Below, in pieces: positions 5,601 through 57,389 of a stretch of 64,000 bases of DNA. Position numbers and translations under genes: made by a program. Every line of letters begins with the position of its first letter. Position 1 is the stretch's first letter. The notes below the pieces were generated by a model that was not told the origin of the DNA, made no database searches, and saw only the letters and a program-made list of their open reading frames with translations. This DNA is from Sphagnum compactum. Its lineage: Eukaryota. The stretch is taken from positions 16,978,213 through 17,042,212 of the forward strand of contig OZ234493.1 of assembly GCA_965153455.1 (NCBI GenBank), written 5' to 3'.

Positions 5601-7519
5601 GTGACAATTAGTCTTTTTGAAGCAACAAAAACAACAAGTAAAGCCTTAGTTAGAAATTTGAGAAAGCTCTTGGATTTTTATGTATTAAGCAAGAAGATCA
5701 TTACTTATGTTAAAGATGAAGGGGTAGACTTAAACTCTATGATGACAACTTTCAAATTAATTATTAATTGCGAGTTTTTGGGGCTAGAAGAGAGTTTCAA
5801 TGGCACTTGTTTTGGTCATGCATTTGCCAAAACCTATCAATATGCTATTGCTAAAAAGAGGGTATGAAAAAATCTTAAGTATGTTTCAATCAAGTCTGTG
5901 TAATCAGATATCCAAAAGTGTTTAACATGGCCAAAGAAATCTAGAAATGGAAGACAAAAATGGACGAAAGCTTATATTGAGTCTGGAATTCAACCAAGGA
6001 AATCAATACACATGTTAAGACAAGGTAAATGTTTCTTTGTTCATTTTTTTATGTTGCGTATTTTGTATTTTTGAGTAAATATTTTTTTCTAATTTTTTTA
6101 CTAATTGTTTGAATTTTTTTGTAGGTTTGTAAGCAAGGTAATATTATTCTAGGAAGTGTTTTTTTTTTGTAGAGTTATTATCATGTGTTACAATAAGCAA
6201 ACTAATGAACTCAAATGTTTGGCCATGTTCCTCCTCCTATTACATGGTTCATTCATTAAACAATAGTTGATTGTTTGAACCCTATTGTTTCTACTTGCAT
6301 CTTGAACCAATTTGCGAAACATTGGTTATTATTGGATGCCCTAAATTCTGCCATCACTATGAGTTCTAAAGCCAAGGATGAAATGCATTTGAGACCTTCT
6401 TTTGAGTCCCTCATGGATGATGACATTAAACTTTCTTCAGAGTTGGCAACTATTACCTCTAACATTAAATTAGAATTGTTTAGGGTTTTAGATTTTTTCT
6501 GTTCATTAATCTTGAGGACATATGAAAAGAAGAAAACACACAACATGTTGTTTTTGATACTTGACCCTAGGTTCAAGATTCTTCATTTTGTTTCCTCATA
6601 TGTTGGTAAAAAACAATGAGTGTCTACTGTGGAGTAATATGATAGGAGAACATTGTATCCCATGTTGGTCAAATCATACACTCACTTACATCCTATTGGA
6701 AATGTTGATTCTGCTTTTACAAATTAGGATGTTAATTAGGACTATGGACTTGATATTTTCCAAATGACTAGTAATAACATTGAAATTGTAAAGGAAATTA
6801 GATTTCAAGAGGTTTCATGTGGATGTGAAAGATATGAAAAACCCTCTCCAATGGTGGGAGAAACATTAGTCTAAATTCCCTACACTTAACTTTCTTACAA
6901 AACAAATATTAGGAATTGTAGGTTCCCAAATTGAAACTAAATGAATTTTTTCTTTTGCTGCAATTTTGACAAGCCTTAAGAGATGTCAGTGGCAATTTGA
7001 AAATTTAGATAAATTAATTTTTGTTAGTCAAAATTGGCCCAATGATCCTAAAGTAGGATGTAATATGCCATTAACCTTGGTGGAGTTCATAAAGAAGGAT
7101 GAAATTATAGAGGAGGAGTTGGAGGAATTTGAAAGGGAATTTGAAGGTAAAAATTGTAAATATGAGCTTTTTATATTGAAACAATTTATTTTCCATCGTT
7201 TATTAATTTATTTAATTCATCATTTATTATGATTATAAGAAAAAAACACAAAAAAATGAAATATAATTTTTTTAAAAAAAACCTTGATTTATGATATTTG
7301 ATTTGTGAGAATTGCTTTTGAAAACTGGAAGTTTGAAATTTTGTGAAACCCACCAACACTGAAAACCACTTAACCAAATTGTTTTAAAATTCTAAAAATT
7401 GGGATGGTCTCAAATGGGAAATTTCGAAAAAAAGAAAAAGAACCAAGGTGGTTTTTGGAACCTACCCCAAAAACCGAAACCAACAGTTCTCACAAAAAAG
7501 TCAGAACCGCCCAACATTA
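2638..7519 (+). mobile_element. hAT-superfamily DNA transposon (decayed, formerly autonomous)
   Basis: Left TIR CAGTGTTGGGTGGTTCTCAC (2638-2657) matches the reverse complement of 7500-7519 (TAATGTTGGGCGGTTCTGAC) at 16/20. 8-bp flanks GTTTTTTG (2630-2637) and GTTTTTTC (7520-7527) match at 7/8. GAGAACC/GGTTCTC subterminal repeats and an internal transposase relic are present. Confidence 0.85.
4940..7150 (+). pseudogene. hAT transposase pseudogene (BED zinc finger, DDE core, C-terminal dimerisation domain)
   Basis: Fragments read CWAFYG..KCHLCYK..KKHVDAEH (BED-like), LWMSKG-YDIFALVINFLDENWQPKKVTI, CFGHAF, VKTR|F across a GT-AG intron at 6025-6124, LDPRFK, and WWEKH..KFPTL..ILGIVGSQIET..IFS..LKRCQ..ENLDKLIFV. 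Many stops and frameshifts. Confidence 0.85.
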
Positions 7520-8599
7520 GTTTTTTCTTTCTTAAAGGATGGGTGGGCTAAAGGTTTAAGAGGGTCATGATTTTTTTAAATTCATTTATTGGGGGGGGAA
7601 TGGGTTGTTCTAGGGTTCTTAATAAGTACTGGAGGTTGGGAAGGGTTTTTTTTCTTTTAGAGTTAGTAAGTTCGATCCTTTAAATATTTATTTTTGGTTG
7701 TTGGAGGTGTAGGGGATACTTGGATTTATCCCAAGTTTTGTATTTTTAAAAATTGGGTGTGGGTTCATGTTCTAGGGTTTAGGGTCTATATTGGGGGAGG
7801 TTTTCATTTAATGCCCTTGATGTTATATAAATGGGAAGGGTTCCATTTTAACATTTTTTATTCCAATTTCATTTCACTTGAAAGTTTTAAGTTTTCCATT
7901 TCATTTGGGAGTGTCATGTTATTTGATTTTTTTTTTAGGGTTATTGGGAGTCCCATTTCATTTTTCTTTTTGAGGGTTTATTCCACTTGTCATCTATGGA
8001 ATTTATTTTAACACATCTTGACTCAAGCTCTTTCAATAACGATGAAGAGTTTCTTGAAGAATTTGCAACGGATAATTAGATTGTGCTACAAGTGGCAATT
8101 GCTTGTGGCGACACTTGAAATTATTTCATATCACCATAATGAGATGAAGAAAGTGGACAATCGGTCAAGGGCGAACCCATCCTTGGGTCGTACCACTATG
8201 AACCACCTCAAGGAATGGTTGAGGAACCAAAAACAACTAAATCATTTTTTTGGGCCCTTTTCATTAAATATTTTCATAATTATGAATTATTATTTTTTCA
8301 TGTTTATTGATTGCATGTTTTAATATATGGCTTGAAGTTTATTTGGAGATTTTTAAAATTTATATTCCTAATTAAAATGGCCCCTTCAAAAATCAATAAA
8401 TTCAACTTTGGAAATTATGTTCCTGAACTTTTTCTAAATGCAATGATTGGGAACATCAAAATACACATTATTCTTGATATTATTGAGATTTCAAAATCTA
8501 TGGAACCTAATAAATGTATTTAAAAAAAGTTATGAAAATGTTCATTTAAGTGTTTCCTATGAATTTTCAAAGTTCAATGGGTCTAGGAAAATCAAGGTG

Positions 8600-11490
8600 T
8601 AATGTTCTTAGTGGTACCACCCAAGGATAGGACTGCCCAACCTTGATGTAAATGTGTAGGACATCTTAGCGACCATGTGGGGTACACCAAGTTTGTTTAA
8701 ATTTTTCACCAACTTCACTCCTAGAGAATTTGAAAAATTGGCACAACTTGTGGTCCCAACCATTACTAGTCATGCAAGGTCCACATGGGAATCACACCGC
8801 ACTTCTAGGTAACCATCCAAGTTGGCCTCAGAACAATGTTTGTTTAGTTTCATCTTGTTCATGAAACATGTGATTAAATATGATGCCTTCATGTGGAATC
8901 GGAGCAAGACTGCAATAAATGATGATGGCATATTTATTACATCTTGCATCAATTATGTCATTGTCGACAATATTCAATGGCCCACTATTGAGCAACAACA
9001 AGTTTTAGTGACACAACTTCCACAATTTTAGGGCTACATTGGATTTATTGATGGGACCTTTCATCAAAATTTATAAGCCTTGAACAATATGTCCCATCAT
9101 AAGCAATTTAATGGGCGAAAAAAATAGTATTACATGAACAACATGGTTATGGTGGACCACCATGGTTGTTCATATATCTAAACCTCGAGTACCCAAGGTC
9201 ATACCATAACATTAGTATCTTTTGCCAATCGAACATCCACAATTCATTGGGTTAATTTTGTCCACATAGATGAATATTTTCAGTATTTATTGGGTGACCC
9301 TAGTTACTTGGGCAAAGAAATGTTTATGATGTGCTACATTGGGAGGCTTCAGTTGGCACTTAGAATTCATATGGATGTTTTTGAGGTGTATGACAAGATG
9401 CATCAAGGGTGACATCTCATTCTAATTCAAGGTTAGGTTTTAATTTTAAGGTTTAAAGTTTAGGTTTAATGTTTAGGCATAGGTTTAAAGCTCATTTTTA
9501 AGGTTTTACATATAGGTTTTACAAATTAGGTTTAGGTTTTTTGGTTTTTTTAAATAATTTTTTTTGGGTTTGGGTTTGATGTTTAAACATTATAAGAAAA
9601 CGTGACTTTTCAAAAAGTCCAACTTGACTTAAATGTTCACATTGACCAAGGGGGATGGTCGTTTTGACTAAAGGCTTGAGGCATGAAAGACACAAGTTAC
9701 TTTTGACTAAAACATTTGGCTAAAATGAATTTTTTGACCATGTGACAAACCAAAAATTTGGTCAAAAAGGCTAAAGGTCCATCAAGATGACCAAAGCTTA
9801 GTCAAAAGAACCATACTTAATGGTCATTGTGATTTACAATTAGTCAAATTGGTCATTCGAATTTGACATTTAATCAAATCAACCATACTAATTTGGTTAT
9901 TTAACCTACAAGATTATTTTGCTTAAGGTACATACCAAACGTAAATTCATAGTTAGTAGGCCCTACGTTAGCCATATTACACCTATTAAGAACTTATAAA
10001 CTTTAATAGGTTGCCTACATGCTACCTTTAATACTTAAAATTGATAATAATTGATAATAATTAATAGTAGTCAATATATAATTATTAATAATTATTGATA
10101 AGTGATTAATTTAATTTAATTTTTTAATTAATAATAATTCATTATATATAATTCATAATAAACATTAAATAATATTAAATAATCTATAAATAATAATAAA
10201 TAGTAGATAGAAATGATCAATAATCTCTATTTATATCAAATAATTATTAAGTAATAGTAGATAATCATTAAATTTTTTTCATATTTAGTAATTGATAGGA
10301 AATAATTAAATATTAATCATTGATATGATTTATTTATAATTTATAAAAATTAGTCATTCATTACTATTTATTTATATTAATTAATTATTAATTGAGTTAA
10401 TTAGGCGTAGATACTTCCATGTTATCTAGATAGATACTTGGTACATGGTATAACCTCCTACTTAAATAAGTAATACAAAAATATTGAAATTCATTGATGA
10501 ATGTTATAATATGTACATCAAAACAAAAAATTCAATAAAATCTATTACAATATGATGACAAAAGTTTTCAACTTTTGAAATGGTAGTCCAATGGTAAGGA
10601 CTTGACTTCTCAAAGTGGAGGTGAGTTATTCAAGACCTCACACATACAACATTGGTTACCTAGGATACCTTGGTTTTACATGGTTTAGATATAGATAGCT
10701 AGACTAGGCCACCTAGACAAGTAGGTCTAAAGTTGGCCACCTAGCTTAGCCTACTTAGTTTAGGGGGCCCAAGCTTAAATAAGGTAGGTAAGTAAATTAT
10801 TTTATTTTATTTTGACATTAATTATTAGGTAATGTAGGTAGCTAAATTTATTAATTAACATATAAATAAATATTATTATATATATTATATATTATATATT
10901 ATATTAAAATTAAAACATATATAGTTGCTTTCAAAATATTCTTGACTAGTAAAAAAGACAATAAAAAAACTAACCAAAAAGACCATGTCAAAATGGCCAA
11001 GTCCAAAACGACTTGTCCAAGATGGCACCTTGGTCAAGTCGAATGGGGGCCATTTGGGGTACCTTTTGACCAATTTTCCCAGTAAAAAAACCCTTGTTTT
11101 CTTGTAGTGAAGGTTAAGGTATATGTCTAAAGTTTTAAGTTTAGTGTTTTGGTTATATATAAACCCAAATGTTTAGGATTTTAAGTTTAGGTTTAGGGTT
11201 GTGCATAAAATTTTAAGGTTTTGGTTTTTTTGGAAGGTGGTTGGACTAACTTGCAATAAAATCATGCATGTTTTCAAATTAAAATGGAATGGGGATTGGA
11301 GGATTGAAATCCAAGTGGAAAAGGCTAATGAAATGTTTTGACTCAATAAAAGAAAAGTATAATCATTTGTTTAGGATTGTTACATTACTAATTAACTTTT
11401 TACACATGCATCGCCAAGATTTCACAATTTAAATTTTTGGTGAACACCATAATGATCTAACAAAACATGGTTAGGATGGTGACTATTGAC
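8600..11490 (+). pseudogene. PIF/Harbinger (DDE_Tnp_4) nuclease pseudogene with an intron ~9410-11270
   Basis: GYIGFIDGT (~9031-9058), YLLGDPSY (~9283-9308) and YDKMH (~9390-9403). The frame resumes after the intron as FQIKMEWGIGGLKSKWKRLMKCFDS (~11271-11345), supplying the third catalytic residue motif. Confidence 0.75.
9588..11109. mobile_element. Non-autonomous CACTA (EnSpm) element nested in the Harbinger intron
   Basis: Right end ...GTTTTCTTGTAGTG (reverse complement CACTACAAGAAAAC). Left end CATTATAAGAAAAC is the same TIR with two C>T changes. 3-bp flanks AAA/AAG. TGACC/GGTCA subterminal repeats at both ends and an AT-rich non-coding core. Confidence 0.7.
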
Positions 11491-34000: not shown

Positions 34001-34484
34001 GTTCCTAACTATAAAATAAAGTTTAAAAAAAAAAAGATTTTTCATATAAGTTTATCATCTTGTATTACACTATATATTATTACCTAATGAAAAATTTGGA
34101 ATAAGAATATCAATATAATTTTTTTAATTTTGCGATCTTTCAATCAAATGACTAATCCATATTTTTCAACTTCAAAAGTCCATTATTACTAACAAATGAG
34201 TTTTTTATTAATATTAATTATCACACAATTCTTTTCATAATAAAATTGTTAATTTAGATCCAAGTCCCAATTAGTAATTCAAAAATATATTAATTCTCAT
34301 ATGCATTTGAATAAAAGATACTCAAGAAAAAAACATCGTTTCATCACAAAAGTAAAGCACTCGATTGTTCACCTACCCCAAAGCAGTTATAAGTTTTCTT
34401 CATGAAGTACATTTGTTTTCTTTACTGAAAAAACTTGACCTGATTATAGTGATAGATTCCAAGGCACATCAAAAGATGGATAGG

Positions 34485-34968
34485 ATCAATGCAAAATGCA
34501 ATACCTCAGTGCAACTTCTATGGGATAAAAGTACTTAATTTGATGGGAAGTTTTTCTGCAGTTCTGGGAGGTCAGATAGAGAAACTATGGCAGGAGTTCT
34601 TGTGTCCTCAGCAATTGAACATCAATCATGTCAGAGTTCATATGTCAATGGATCCATAGCTCTTGTTGGTGTCAATTGTGTTGCTCTCTCTTGGTTGCTA
34701 TCCTGCCATGTCCTAAACTTTGGCAGAAATTCTTTGGCACTGGTCAAATAGTAGTAGTCAATATCCTGTGACATAATTCTTTGCTGTATACAGAAGATCA
34801 GTGATGCTTTCTCTGTTCTTATGATTGCATTTATTCGTGGGATGTGGAGAAGACATGACTGATCAGTTTGATCCGGATTTCTGGTTGTACGCAAATGAAT
34901 GGTCCCCAGATTCCAAACATAAGAACACCCAGGAAGCACTTAGGCTAGAGGTGCGACAAAACCCAACA
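34485..34968 (+). pseudogene. Isolated duplicate of the OSB/PDF-motif exons and intron of the PPR-DYW gene family
   Basis: Clear nucleotide homology to ~55370-55905, including the intron. Encodes GGQIEKLWQEFL and ANEWSPDSKHKNTQEALRLEVRQNP. No PPR repeats follow. Confidence 0.75.
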
Positions 34969-37085
34969 TTTATCCATTCATACCTGGTCACAAGGAGGAG
35001 CAGAGGTGCAGGGCCTTGGCTAGTTCAATTTTGCTGCCCACAATCAGGCAAGGTGGCAACTCTCCTGTAAGATTTATGGTTATCAATTTATGCCTACTGC
35101 AGTTAATTTGCCAGTCTAAGATAAGCGTTGTCCATATTAGGGCACTCTGCCACTGTAGGTTGTCGTGAAGACTTCGTGGCGAACTACAGGGAGTTCTGTA
35201 GTTTTATTTCTCAAATGCACATACATGTCTGACAGCAGTTTAGGTTGTTCTAATCCATGAGTGCACTCTTTGCTGCTGTCAGGTGATTTGAACTGACCAG
35301 GTCTTCCTTTGACACCTTTAATCCACACTTTTGGGATCGAGGAAGAGGAGACTAAGCCCTGTGTTCAACGTCTGAACTATGATGATGACCAGTGGCTGCA
35401 AGAGTATGTGCTCCCATTAAGAGGGATCTAGAGAATCCATATCTGAGAGCTTTGTGAAATGTAATCCGGGTTACCAAGAACACAAATATGACATTGAAGT
35501 GAGCACTCCTGATGAAGGTTGGTTCCCAAATGTATCAAATAGATCTATTGTACGTTTTGTACCAGCCACTGAAGGCAACTTTTGAATTTGGCATACAAAT
35601 TCAAGATGTGAAAACTCATGAGAGTTATTGTCTCATTTGTTCCCTCTTTGCTGATATGTTCATAGATCTGAAATCTCTCTCGCCTTAGAACTAGGTTATT
35701 TTTCAACTCTATTCAGGTGAAACACTGGTCTGTGGTTAGGGATGTTTGAGCTCCAAAGTACTTTGTAGTTAATTATAATAAACTTTGGAGTACAATTCTC
35801 ATGAGTGTTGTGCAGGGTTGTCGATTGTTTCTCTGATATCTATTCAATTGCAGCATTTGTCCAGGCCTTTCAGGCTGGTTCATTAAGATTAAGCAAACAG
35901 GGTACTCAGTGTGTGTCATTAATGTTTCTAACAGCTAGTGATCAAAGGCATTGACCAATGGATGGGCAGTTGCAGGTTTATTTACAAAATCTTCTGGTTT
36001 ATTCCTCAATTATCCCTTTGACAGCAAAGCATGCAGCCATGCCCCTTAACGTTTGTTTGTATCAATGGATCCGAGCCATGTGATTAGGACCATCATGCGT
36101 TTCCTCATTGGCTTGTCCTCAATGCTGTCCTGGATCATCACACAACTGCCTCAATTCATCAGTGACTGGAGATTGCTAAGTGCAGAAGCACCACCTCCTT
36201 GGTTCCTCTTCCAATGGCTTGCAGTAAATAATCATCTTCCATGTGTATCCATCCATCCCACCCATTGCCACATCCTCAAAACATTCATATTTCTCTGGTT
36301 CTTTGACCCTGAGGGCCTTAGGTTGAGGTCCAACTAACCGGAAGAGGAAGTAATTCAGCATTGATGCAATTCTCTCCACCTGCCAATTTGAACTCACTGC
36401 TGAGAGGAGGGGACTGAAGTGAGTTTTGAAACTTTGGGCATGTTTTTGGCAACTGAATTCCCAATTACGCTCAAGGGTTTTTTCTGTTTTATCCACTGCA
36501 CCTTTATGCTAACCCAGGCATTTACAGATCTCTGAAGTAATGCTGCTGCTTTCTATCAAATAATTGCAGCATGGTCTTAATATAATTTTTCATGTTCCAG
36601 GTGTCAGTATACCCAACTTCAGCCTCCACATGGACAACAGCAAACCAGTAACATCTCTCAGCATTGGCCTAGTTTTCCTCAATGATCTCTGCATATTTAG
36701 TGCTTGGGATCTATGCCATGTCTATTATTTTCTATTATTTATCCTTGCTTGCAAAAGAAGCTACTCCGTTCCATTTTCATTCTGCTGTGGATGATAGTAA
36801 ACATTGTATTCTTGCAAGACAGGGAAAGAAGAAGGTGACAACAGGCAGCAAGGCAGCAGAACAGTAAGATTGTATCTCAGGACTGCCTCAGCAAGTGTAT
36901 GTACTTGTCCCTTTCTCAGATGTACATATTGGTGTGTATATGCCTGTTCCACACTGGCTTCAACCTTTGTCAAGCATGTGCTATTATTTCTAAGATTTCC
37001 TGTCATTTCACCATGACAATCTGGAAAAAACCTTCATGCTTTTAAGCTTCATTGTGGTCTTTTTGTTCAGTTTCTTGATCTTCAG

Positions 37086-54800: not shown

Positions 54801-55158
54801 GGTTCGAATCTAGGTTTTTTAGTACTAGGAACAAAAACTTAAATTATAAGTTATTCGGCGCAGAACTGCGCTGAGCACACCGCCTTGACCCCCGCGATGT
54901 TCGATGGCGGAGTACAACGTCCTGCCACATTGGATGCTCGAGCGGGAATGCATTTGGCTCCACTTCGCACGCTCGAAAAGGGGGTTTGAATTTGGCTTCA
55001 CTGCACATGCCCTTCTCGTGTACAGGATTGTGAGGAGCCAGAGCAATTGCCAAGGTCTTTGAGAAGGAACGTTTTTACTATTGGTGCGGCAAGTGCGATC
55101 GCCGTTGCAGGATACGACTCTTTTCTAGAGCACAAAAGCACCAGCTCCCCGACACCGC

Positions 55159-57389
55159 ATGGAAAGGACGAGGTTGAGTAGGAGGAGCCTGCTGCTGCGT
55201 ATCTGTGTGCACCCGCAACCGCACTCTACCCATTAACAACTTTTGCTGTACACCGCACTTCTTCCCAGCGGCCATCGGATAGAAACAAAGGCGGTCCTCA
55301 GAGATCAGCGCAGTTGTAAGTTTTCTTACGTTGTTCGATATCTTCCGAGGCAATCGAGAGATTGCACACAATCTATACAAGATGCGATACCTCAGCGCGG
55401 CTTCTATGTGATCTAAATGCATGATTCTGCAGGAAGTTTTTCTGCAGTTCCCGGAGGCCAGAGAGAGAAACTGTGGCGGGACTTCTTTTTGGATCCTTCG
55501 AAATTGTGGGATCACCGGTCAGAGGAGGTAACTGAACTTCGATCCGGTCAGACTTCACATTTCAATGGAGCCATAGCTCATGTTGGTGTCAATCTCTTTG
55601 CTCTCTCTCGGTTGCTATCCTGCCATGGTCTAAAAGCTGGCAGGCTTTTTTTCAGACCCTTTGCACGGGTGAGATCGTAGTAGTAGGCCGGAGAAGGTAG
55701 GTAAATGCTATATACTAGCACAAATTTCTCTGATGGAGAAGGTCCATGTGGCTTTCTCTCTTCTTATTATAGCGTTTATGCCTAGGATGTGGAGAGTACA
55801 TGGCTGATCAGCTTGATCTGGATTTCTGGTTGTAGGCAAGTGGAAGACCCTCATTTCATACATAAGAAGACACAGGAAGCACTTTGGCTCGAGGACTGGT
55901 GAAACCCTCCATGGTGGCAGCAGAGATGGCTGCAATGGCACCAGGCACAGAGCAATTGCACATTTTTGCATGGAATAAGAAGCTTACAAAACATGTGAAA
56001 AGGATGGGCAAACTGAGAAGGCAATGCAGCTTTTCCAACAAATGCAACAGAAAGGGAATTCTGACAAATTCACTTTTCTTCAGGTGATTAAAGCATGTGC
56101 TCATTTAGGAGCATTGCAGATGACAGCCATGTTCTTAAACAGATCATTCAAAGTGATTTGAGTCTGATGTCTTTTTGAGGAGTAGCTTGGTTGACATTTA
56201 TGCAAAATGTGGGAGCATTGAGGATGCTGGGAGAGTGTTCAACAAGATGCCATCTCGAGATGTGGTCACTTGGAATGCCATGATATTGGGATATGTGAAT
56301 GTGGGCAAGGGCAGAAGGCACTGAAACTGTTTCGACAAATGCAACAGGAAGATGTGTGACCAACCTCTGTTACTTTTGTGGGGGTGCTGAATGCATGTGC
56401 CAGTGTAGTTGTGCTTGAGGGGGCAGGTGTGCTCATGAGCATTTCAGTCAAAGCGGATGGGATGTCTTTATGGCGAATAACTTGGTTGACACGTATGCAA
56501 AAGTTGACATGATTGACATTCAGTTACCTTCTCTGACCTTTTGATCACGCGATGGCATCTTGTTGAACACTCAGCCAAATGATATCTTTATTTGTCTCCT
56601 GTCAGTGTGCAGTGATGCACGTTTGGTGCAGGAAGCCATGTGGTGCTATGCTTCAATGATCACTGTTTACATGATTTCTGCAAAATTGGAACAATACACC
56701 TGCATGGTTGATCTTATTGGCCATGCTGGCCATCTACAGGAGACAGAATATGATAAAGGAGATGCCCTGGAAACCACGTGTCTGCATGGAGGATGTTGTT
56801 TGGGGCTTGCAGAATTCATTGTAACATGGAGATGAGAGAATATGTTGCTAACCAAATTCTTGAATTGGAGCTTGAAAATGCTGTTGGTTATGTGCTGTTA
56901 TGAAATATCTATGCTGCTGCGGGCAACAGGCATCTTTGTGAGAATGTTGAACAGCAGAGAAAGGAAAGAGGTGTGAAGAAACAACTGGATGGCACCGGGG
57001 TTGAAGTGAACAACAAGGTACAGACATTTGTTGTATGCAATCAAAACTACCCTCAGATGATTGAAATTTGAGCAAAACTGAAAAGACTGTCAGTTCTCAT
57101 GCATGATGCAGGGCATGTGCCATATACAAAATTCATGCTGCATGATGTGGAAGAAGATGAAAATGTTCCTTTCCTTCACCAGAGTGAGAAATTGGTTATT
57201 GCATTCAGGCTCATCAACAGAGCTCCTGGTACTCCACTATAAAAAATGAAAAATCTGCAGGTTTGTGAAAATTGCCACACTTCCACAAAGTTTGTTTCAA
57301 AACAGTTGGGAGACCAATCATGGTGAGGGATGCCGATTGCTTTCATCACTTTTTAGCATGATGTTTCTTCTTGCATGGACTTTTGGTGA
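55159..57389 (+). pseudogene. PLS-class PPR-E-DYW RNA-editing factor pseudogene with N-terminal OSB-type PDF motif and putative organellar transit peptide
   Basis: Exon 1 (55159-55315) reads MERTRLSRRSLLLR..., with one stop. Exon 2 (55448-55527) reads REKLWRDFFLDPSKLWDHRSEE. Exon 3 from 55836 reads PHFIHKKTQEALWL, then PPRs (DKFTFLQVIKACA, SSLVDIYAKCGSIEDAGRVFNKMPSRDVVTWNAMI, SVTFVGVLNACA, YTCMVDLIGHAG), an E domain, and DYW HQSEKL..KNLQVCENCHTSTK..RDADCFHHF..SSCMDFW*. Many frameshifts. Confidence 0.9.

Follow-up and report, generated by a model that had tools for sequence, protein, structure and literature searches.

A decayed PPR gene with an intron-split PDF motif

We analyzed a 64,000-nucleotide (nt) stretch of Sphagnum compactum DNA, hereafter the window, whose positions serve as coordinates at this locus. 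At 55086-57389 on the plus strand lies a three-exon PPR gene of the PLS-E-DYW type that carries near its N-terminus a motif of the PDF type, the motif of OSB proteins, with an intron running through it. This copy is a thoroughly decayed pseudogene, and a second, truncated copy of the same module lies elsewhere in the window. Judged from sequence, the two are very probably a dead paralogue and a truncated fragment of a large nuclear family of Sphagnum-type moss genes with a PDF-PLS-PPR-E-DYW architecture. The window locus, no more than a decayed copy, is of interest for the family behind it, whose intact members consist of a presequence-like leader, one PDF motif of ~55-60 residues split by a phase-0 intron, PLS-type PPRs, an E motif, and a DYW domain. 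The parts of the two window copies are as follows.

55086..55315, plus strand: exon 1, a decayed leader, presequence-like by composition and rich in R, S, and L
55316..55456, plus strand: intron 1, GT..AG, 141 nt, equivalent in position to 7281-7481 of the intact relative L001 (see below)
55457..55527, plus strand: exon 2, 71 nt (the same length as in L001), with the N-terminal half of the PDF motif, (C)QREKLWRDFFLDPSKLWDHRSEE, corresponding to positions 3-26 of the hidden Markov model (HMM) of the family motif
55528..55835, plus strand: intron 2, GT..AG, 308 nt, interrupting the PDF motif and partly kept in the second window copy
55836..55925, plus strand: start of exon 3 with the C-terminal half of the PDF motif, namely ASGR, a 2-nt deletion at ~55848, PHFIHKKTQEALWLEDW, a TGA at 55900, and NPPW
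55926..56780, plus strand: decayed PLS-type PPR tract with frameshifts, stops at 56357 and 56542, and an internal deletion
56781..57389, plus strand: decayed E motif and DYW deaminase, in which HQSEKL and CENCH are kept, ending in SSCMDFW and a TGA
34451..34974, plus strand: second, truncated copy of the module, running from the end of intron 1 through exon 2 and intron 2 into the beginning of exon 3 (ANEWSPDSKHKNTQEALRLEVRQNPTF)

The leader has an ATG at 55160, reading MERTRLSRRSLLLRICVHP..., while homology to the relatives begins at ~55086 in another frame. The first half of the motif, ...REKLWRDFFLDPSKLWDHRSEE, ends at 55527 and is followed by a GT donor at 55528; the AG acceptor occupies 55834-55835, and exon 3, whose start matches HMM positions 29-47, begins at 55836. 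The final TGA stands at 57387-57389, after SSCMDFW. With Pfam, fragments of PPR, E_motif, and DYW_deaminase were found spread over all three frames of the locus: the PPR and PPR_2 fragments scored 38.5 and 36.1 bits, and the E motif and DYW domain, broken by stops and frameshifts, appeared only as fragments of 28.3 and 17 bits. The leader, the two motif exons, the PPR and E/DYW fragments, and the DFW end thus all lie where a preliminary description of this DNA, made from its letters alone, had put them.

The motif of the window copy deviates from that of its intact relatives, reading PHFIHK where they have YPDFKHK and LWD in place of WWD, and it is crossed by a frameshift. To control for chance, every six-frame peptide of the window (3813 in total) was scored with the family-motif HMM. 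The two motif halves reached E = 7.4e-10 (exon 2) and E = 1.7e-5 (exon 3 start), and exon 3 of the second copy E = 4.6e-6, whereas the decayed exon-2 frame of that copy (34456-34656) scored E = 0.52; no peptide outside the two loci did better than E = 0.66.

The gene at 55086-57389 has accumulated at least seven in-frame stops and about 11 frameshifts. We mapped the decay of exon 3 by frameshift-tolerant alignment to two intact relatives, P0006 and P0002, which placed six in-frame stops (55900, 56357, 56542, 56901, 57069, and 57240) and 9-10 frameshifts, those in the E/DYW part at 57303 and 57356. In exon 1, a TAA (55234-55236) replaces the Q or R of the relatives, and the frame shifts at least once near 55149-55175. 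The stops and frameshifts in both exons agree with the pseudogene status assigned to this copy in the preliminary description, which had also pointed to a second, diverged copy of the module. That copy was found, truncated, at 34451-34974: it is 68% identical to the first at the nucleotide level over 34451-34951, with protein homology reaching 34974, a deletion in its exon 2 takes out WWDHRSEK together with the splice donor, and no PPRs lie downstream of its module. Inside the larger pseudogene, a 29-nt inverted duplicate (56233-56261 and 56544-56572, 93% identity) stands beside a poorly aligning stretch, which together suggest a small inversion or deletion within the PPR tract.

Intact relatives and family size

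A protein search with residues 1-40 of the window open reading frame (ORF) in the exon-2 frame initially returned one match, P0001, among 2 candidates (a consequence of the word-index limit); P0001 stems from a relative, whose introns were read through in the gene call. A metagenome search with P0001 yielded 317 stretches encoding relatives of the module, of which the best 80 were analyzed. A regular expression for the first half of the motif matched in 65 of these 80 loci, nearly all reading EKLW.EFF.DPSQWWDHR.EK, a uniformity that is biased because DPSQWWDH was among the search patterns. Among the 44 loci with at least 2.5 kb of downstream sequence, 12 had an open frame from the second half of the motif to the end of the DYW domain. 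As the loci are redundant across several samples, these numbers are not gene counts, and the 12 open loci correspond to approximately six distinct genes.

The exon-3 frame of L001 is intact (7639-10206, 855 amino acids), beginning with TNERYPDFKHKKTQEALWLDD and ending in CSCMDYW. Its Pfam matches comprise PPR_2 with 393 bits in 8 stretches (the frame as a whole has at least eight PPR stretches), E_motif with 57.7 bits, and DYW_deaminase with 140 bits at positions 1-93 of 93, i.e., at full length. The deaminase signatures HxE and CxxCH are complete in the intact relative (HHSEKLAIAFGL...CKDCH...CSCMDYW), and in intact members no linker separates the PDF motif from the PLS-class PPR tract. Judged by domain content, the intact members are built like an organellar C-to-U RNA-editing factor and carry an additional module at the N-terminus.

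Annotated proteins extended the family beyond the metagenome. A search with the motif region of L033, a contig in which this region is already spliced (see below), returned 33 proteins, 32 of them with PPR Pfam families; the remaining match, P0033, is a 280-amino acid intron read-through gene call with no Pfam family. The named matches came from seven Sphagnum species, the lycophyte Diphasiastrum complanatum, and the leafy liverwort Calypogeia fissa. We further built a profile, A1, from 14 trimmed motifs, all of them PPR-attached (62 positions), which found 433 proteins at E <= 10 among 8000 scored candidates. PPR Pfam families are present in 78 of the 120 A1 matches listed, one of these proteins coming from the fern Adiantum capillus-veneris. 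A cluster look-up added P0266 from the marchantiid liverwort Riccia sorocarpa, a protein of 458 amino acids with one PDF motif followed by PPRs, in which Pfam found no E or DYW domain. The search for PDF+PPR proteins that the preliminary description had called for thus gave annotated examples in mosses, liverworts, a lycophyte, and a fern: seven Sphagnum species, Calypogeia fissa, Riccia sorocarpa, Diphasiastrum complanatum, and Adiantum capillus-veneris. Its term "family of editing factors" holds insofar as there is a family with intact PDF-PPR-E-DYW members, and is slightly narrow, given the Riccia member that lacks E and DYW domains. Sphagnum PPR proteins carry one copy of the motif (except for one partial 169-amino acid entry that shows two), the Diphasiastrum PPR proteins mostly two or three tandem copies, and the Adiantum protein two.

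Two side observations concern the metagenome loci. The frame closes within ~22 residues of the start of the second motif half in 24 of the 80 loci. Directly after EALWL.D, intact copies have CGA or CAA codons, whereas the window copy (55897-55902) has TGA and several independently decayed loci (L008, L011, L034, L045, L055, and L065) have TGA or TAA; the pattern resembles a recurrent hot spot of C-to-T nonsense changes at Arg codons containing CpG.

Splicing of the motif exons

L033, a 3661-nt contig that is 97.4% identical to L001, lacks both introns and reads ...QREKLWREFFLDPSQWWDHRSEKTNERYPDFKHKKTQEALWLDD... (VHGNCQREKLWREFFLDPSQWWDHRSEKTNERYPDFKHKKTQEALWLDDQQKLPWVAAGIAAMAPG) in a single frame, with 5′ and 3′ untranslated flanks present. 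At 1611-1613, the frame of L033 is interrupted by a stop codon in place of the Trp of a VVTWNAM PPR signature; L001 encodes Trp at this point. We also placed the contigs of three RNA-library runs (X1, X3, and X4) and of one DNA-like run (X19) on L001, and found the following joints.

7280->7482 on L001: GT..AG, in RNA-library runs X1 and X4, joint side 30 nt, absent in X19
7550->7637 on L001: GT..AG, cut +2, in RNA-library runs X1 and X3, joint side 25-26 nt, absent in X19

One X19 contig (7229-7505) begins within intron 1 and continues without a break past the 3′ end of the intron into exon 2. Exon 2 of L001 accordingly spans 7482-7552 and exon 3 starts at 7639, the two being joined in frame (SEK|TNE). 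These joints show that the RNA libraries contain the spliced form; they give no measure of its abundance. Intact members with the motif in frame with the PPRs, on which the preliminary description had made its claim depend, are hence represented by genomic ORFs, annotated proteins, L033, and the RNA-library joints.

Homology of the motif to OSB proteins

Sequence comparison identifies the PPR-attached motif as a homolog of the PDF motifs of OSB proteins. The identity with the OSB motif had been put forward in the preliminary description, with a profile search set beforehand as its test, and the PPR-derived profile did retrieve named OSB1/2/3 proteins, with E-values of 1e-61 to 1e-29. Among the 120 A1 matches listed, 10 are named OSB1/2/3 or single-stranded DNA-binding protein, examples being a Eutrema OSB1 (E = 1.3e-61) and a Quillaja OSB3 (E = 2.2e-61), and 9 contain the SSB family PF00436. 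Single copies of the motif in the named OSB/SSB proteins scored 32-74 bits, most of them >50, and mostly covered profile positions 3-60 of 62. We derived consensus sequences from 485 copies in 174 non-PPR proteins versus 145 copies in 94 PPR proteins, the classes being assigned by regular expression, and found LW...F..P..WWD.R..K.NP..PDFKHK.T..ALW......P.WV...L to be common to both groups.

The PPR-attached proteins are nevertheless distinct from OSB proteins. PF00436 was not found in the L001 exon-3 ORF, in P0019, P0096, or P0266, nor in the Pfam lists of the PPR-type matches; these proteins are therefore not OSB proteins, with which they have the PDF motif alone in common. Pfam assigned no family to either motif exon of the window and holds no model of the PDF motif, because of which annotation and domain-fusion surveys miss it. 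A phmmer search with the 62-residue motif returned 731 cluster representatives at E <= 1e-3 (194 at E <= 1e-10). When the top 75 of 150 representatives were run against Pfam (E <= 1e-6), SSB was found in nine, PPR in seven, a kinesin motor in one, and a doubtful DUF4927/NifQ match in another; the remaining 57 gave no family at all, among them arrays of 9-13 PDF copies.

Some of these matches show the motif in other settings. Long pure PDF arrays without any Pfam domain occur among P0035-P0038 and P0044, with 13 copies in a Kingdonia uniflora protein and nine in one labeled as coming from the dinoflagellate Effrenium voratum; a protein from the snow alga Sanguina has five PDF copies behind ~200 other residues. 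The accessible text of two reviews describes the PDF motif as confined to green plants (PMC6963530, PMC4166229). Among P0157 and P0147, three PDF motifs stand on a 1526-amino acid Coptis chinensis protein with a kinesin motor, and three on a Striga protein whose name refers to an ICR2-like protein; such combinations may be either genuine fusions or merged gene models.

Conservation and predicted structure

When 29 full-length PDF-PPR proteins were aligned, the motif (residues 92-147 of a 564-residue reference) held 20 of the 36 invariant columns and is therefore more conserved than the DYW domain. By this alignment, it is the best-conserved part of the PDF-PPR proteins. AlphaFold2 predicted residues 1-85 of the full-length protein P0013, its leader, to be disordered, and gave the motif predicted local distance difference test (pLDDT) scores of 70-91 as means of ten-residue blocks; modeled alone, the motif reached a mean pLDDT of 85.3 and a predicted template modeling score (pTM) of 0.69. 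The predicted fold consists of a helix, three short strands (WWD, FKH, and AL), and a second helix that runs directly into the first PPR.

Comparisons with known structures gave no usable match. A PDB sequence search with A1 matched no solved structure of the motif, its sole match being a lectin at E = 0.64; for the 62-residue model, the best Foldseek match was a WW domain at E = 6.9, and VIA-align gave a best Z of 3.1 among 48,161 chains. Such a missing match says nothing about the novelty of the fold. An ESM Atlas search with residues 86-200 of P0013 found only generic PPR clusters, with scores <=0.90.

Possible roles of the PDF motif

The N-terminal repeats of PPR editing factors face the 5′ part of the cis-element. 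The PDF unit would sit at this 5′-facing end of the PPR tract and, as a single-strand-binding unit joined without a linker, would contact the nucleic acid further 5′. By analogy with OSB proteins, we propose a mechanism, to which we give an even chance, in which the PDF unit serves as a sequence-independent grip that aids substrate binding: it would hold single-stranded nucleic acid whatever its sequence and so add affinity or residence time to the sequence-specific contact between PPRs and RNA, in lineages without MORF-type helpers. The strand held could be RNA, single-stranded DNA (ssDNA), or both. In the accessible text of two reviews, which cite Zaegel et al. 2006 for ssDNA binding by the motif (PMC6963530, PMC4166229), the PDF motif of AtOSB1 is described as sufficient for binding ssDNA (PMC6963530), and OSB1 and OSB2 as preferring ssDNA over double-stranded DNA or RNA (PMC4166229).

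Several points weigh against our view of the family and of its motif. The preference of OSB proteins for ssDNA over RNA argues against a simple RNA clamp and favors a role at DNA or the nucleoid. The Riccia protein has neither an E nor a DYW domain, and the role of the motif is therefore not tied to deamination. As to the state of the family, the frame is interrupted in 32 of the 44 loci with enough downstream sequence (at least 2.5 kb) and both window copies are dead, and much of the family is therefore decaying. On the side of expression, L033 may be an allele, an assembly error, or a retrocopy instead of a messenger RNA, and the RNA evidence consists of assembled contigs with short joint sides of 25-30 nt.

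That ssDNA preference is the starting point of another explanation, which we regard as possible but clearly less probable than the grip: the motif might tether the editing factor to the nucleoid, by binding ssDNA of the organelle, for instance the displaced non-template strand or an intermediate of replication or recombination, so that editing would take place cotranscriptionally while the RNA substrate itself stays untouched by the motif. Besides the reviewed role of the PDF motif as the ssDNA-binding part of OSB1, with ssDNA preferred over RNA (PMC6963530, PMC4166229, in their accessible text), such a tether would suit the retention of all OSB signature residues in the PPR-attached copies and the two to three tandem copies in Diphasiastrum PPR proteins, an OSB-like trait. 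The linkerless fusion to the first PPR, however, fits a continuous nucleic-acid surface at least equally well, and the PPR editing factors of other plants function without such a module. Further along the same line, PDF-PPR-DYW proteins might be recruited to single-stranded organellar DNA at transcription bubbles, R-loops, or recombination intermediates, coupling editing to transcription or genome maintenance, which we consider improbable. If true, in its boldest form the DYW deaminase could reach cytidines in ssDNA, and the PDF motif would be a general single-strand-binding domain of the green lineage, not yet modeled and able to pair with different partners such as an OB fold or PPRs.

A role in protein-protein contacts, with the motif oligomerizing or recruiting a partner (an OSB protein, another PPR protein, or a helper analogous to MORF) and binding no nucleic acid, is likewise rather unlikely in our judgment. 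The many invariant aromatic residues could form an interface, the predicted fold has no clear match to a known nucleic-acid-binding fold, and AtOSB2 is reported as tetrameric in the accessible text of one review (PMC6963530); on the other hand, ssDNA binding is the sole biochemical activity reported for the motif in the sources as available, and no partner is known. The simplest reading of the window on its own, in which an OSB-derived fragment landed upstream of a PPR pseudogene by chance and formed no real architecture, could appeal to the fact that both copies are dead and that the second is a module without PPRs. It can practically be dismissed: intact genes from several land-plant lineages share this exon structure, the exons are spliced in frame, and no part of the proteins is better conserved than the motif. 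The intact ORFs, the spliced L033, the annotated proteins, and the RNA-library joints refute such a juxtaposition.

Significance and comparison with known systems

Few organellar RNA-binding proteins have been studied as much as the PPR-DYW editing factors, and work is under way to engineer them into programmable editors. A conserved module, predicted to be folded, at the 5′-facing end of the PPR tract in dozens of Sphagnum and Diphasiastrum genes, and also on single PDF+PPR proteins retrieved from two liverworts and one fern, would be an unrecognized determinant of editing without MORF-type helpers in early-diverging land plants. The PDF motif would become an independent, portable single-strand-binding unit and would no longer be a peculiarity of OSB proteins. 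The fusion also makes the question of whether editing is tied to nucleoids or transcription directly testable.

The combination of a PDF motif with PPR-DYW proteins seems to be undescribed so far. The terms "OSB" and "PDF" do not occur in the searchable text of a 2024 PPR review (PMC11897456) or of a 2026 kingdom-wide survey of editing-factor domain fusions (PMC13386178), as found by term look-up, and no description of a PDF-PPR fusion was found in the searchable literature, which covers few subscription papers.

The closest known systems each share a part of this architecture. OSB proteins contain the same PDF motif of ~50-60 residues, with the signature LW..F..P..WWD.R..K.NP..PDFKHK.T..ALW...P.WV, in one to several tandem copies, as do the Diphasiastrum and Adiantum PPR proteins, and they are related to organelles as well. 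In OSB proteins, however, the motif lies C-terminal to an SSB-like OB fold (PF00436), whereas in the PDF-PPR proteins it is N-terminal, the OB fold is absent, and the partner is a PPR-E-DYW editing module. With PLS-class PPR-E-DYW editors, such as PPR56 and PPR65 of Physcomitrium and the DYW-type factors of Arabidopsis, the intact relatives have in common the PLS tract, the E motif, and the DYW deaminase with its HxE and CxxCH signatures and terminal DYW; the PDF motif, encoded by its own small exon and the start of the main exon, stands outside the architecture described for these editors. RRM-PPR fusions, exemplified by maize PPR4 with its N-terminal RRM and described in the accessible text of the fusion survey (PMC13386178), resemble the present family in placing a single-strand nucleic-acid-binding module at the N-terminus of a PPR tract, but here this module is a PDF motif instead of an RRM, and it is attached to PLS-DYW editors of bryophytes, lycophytes, and ferns.

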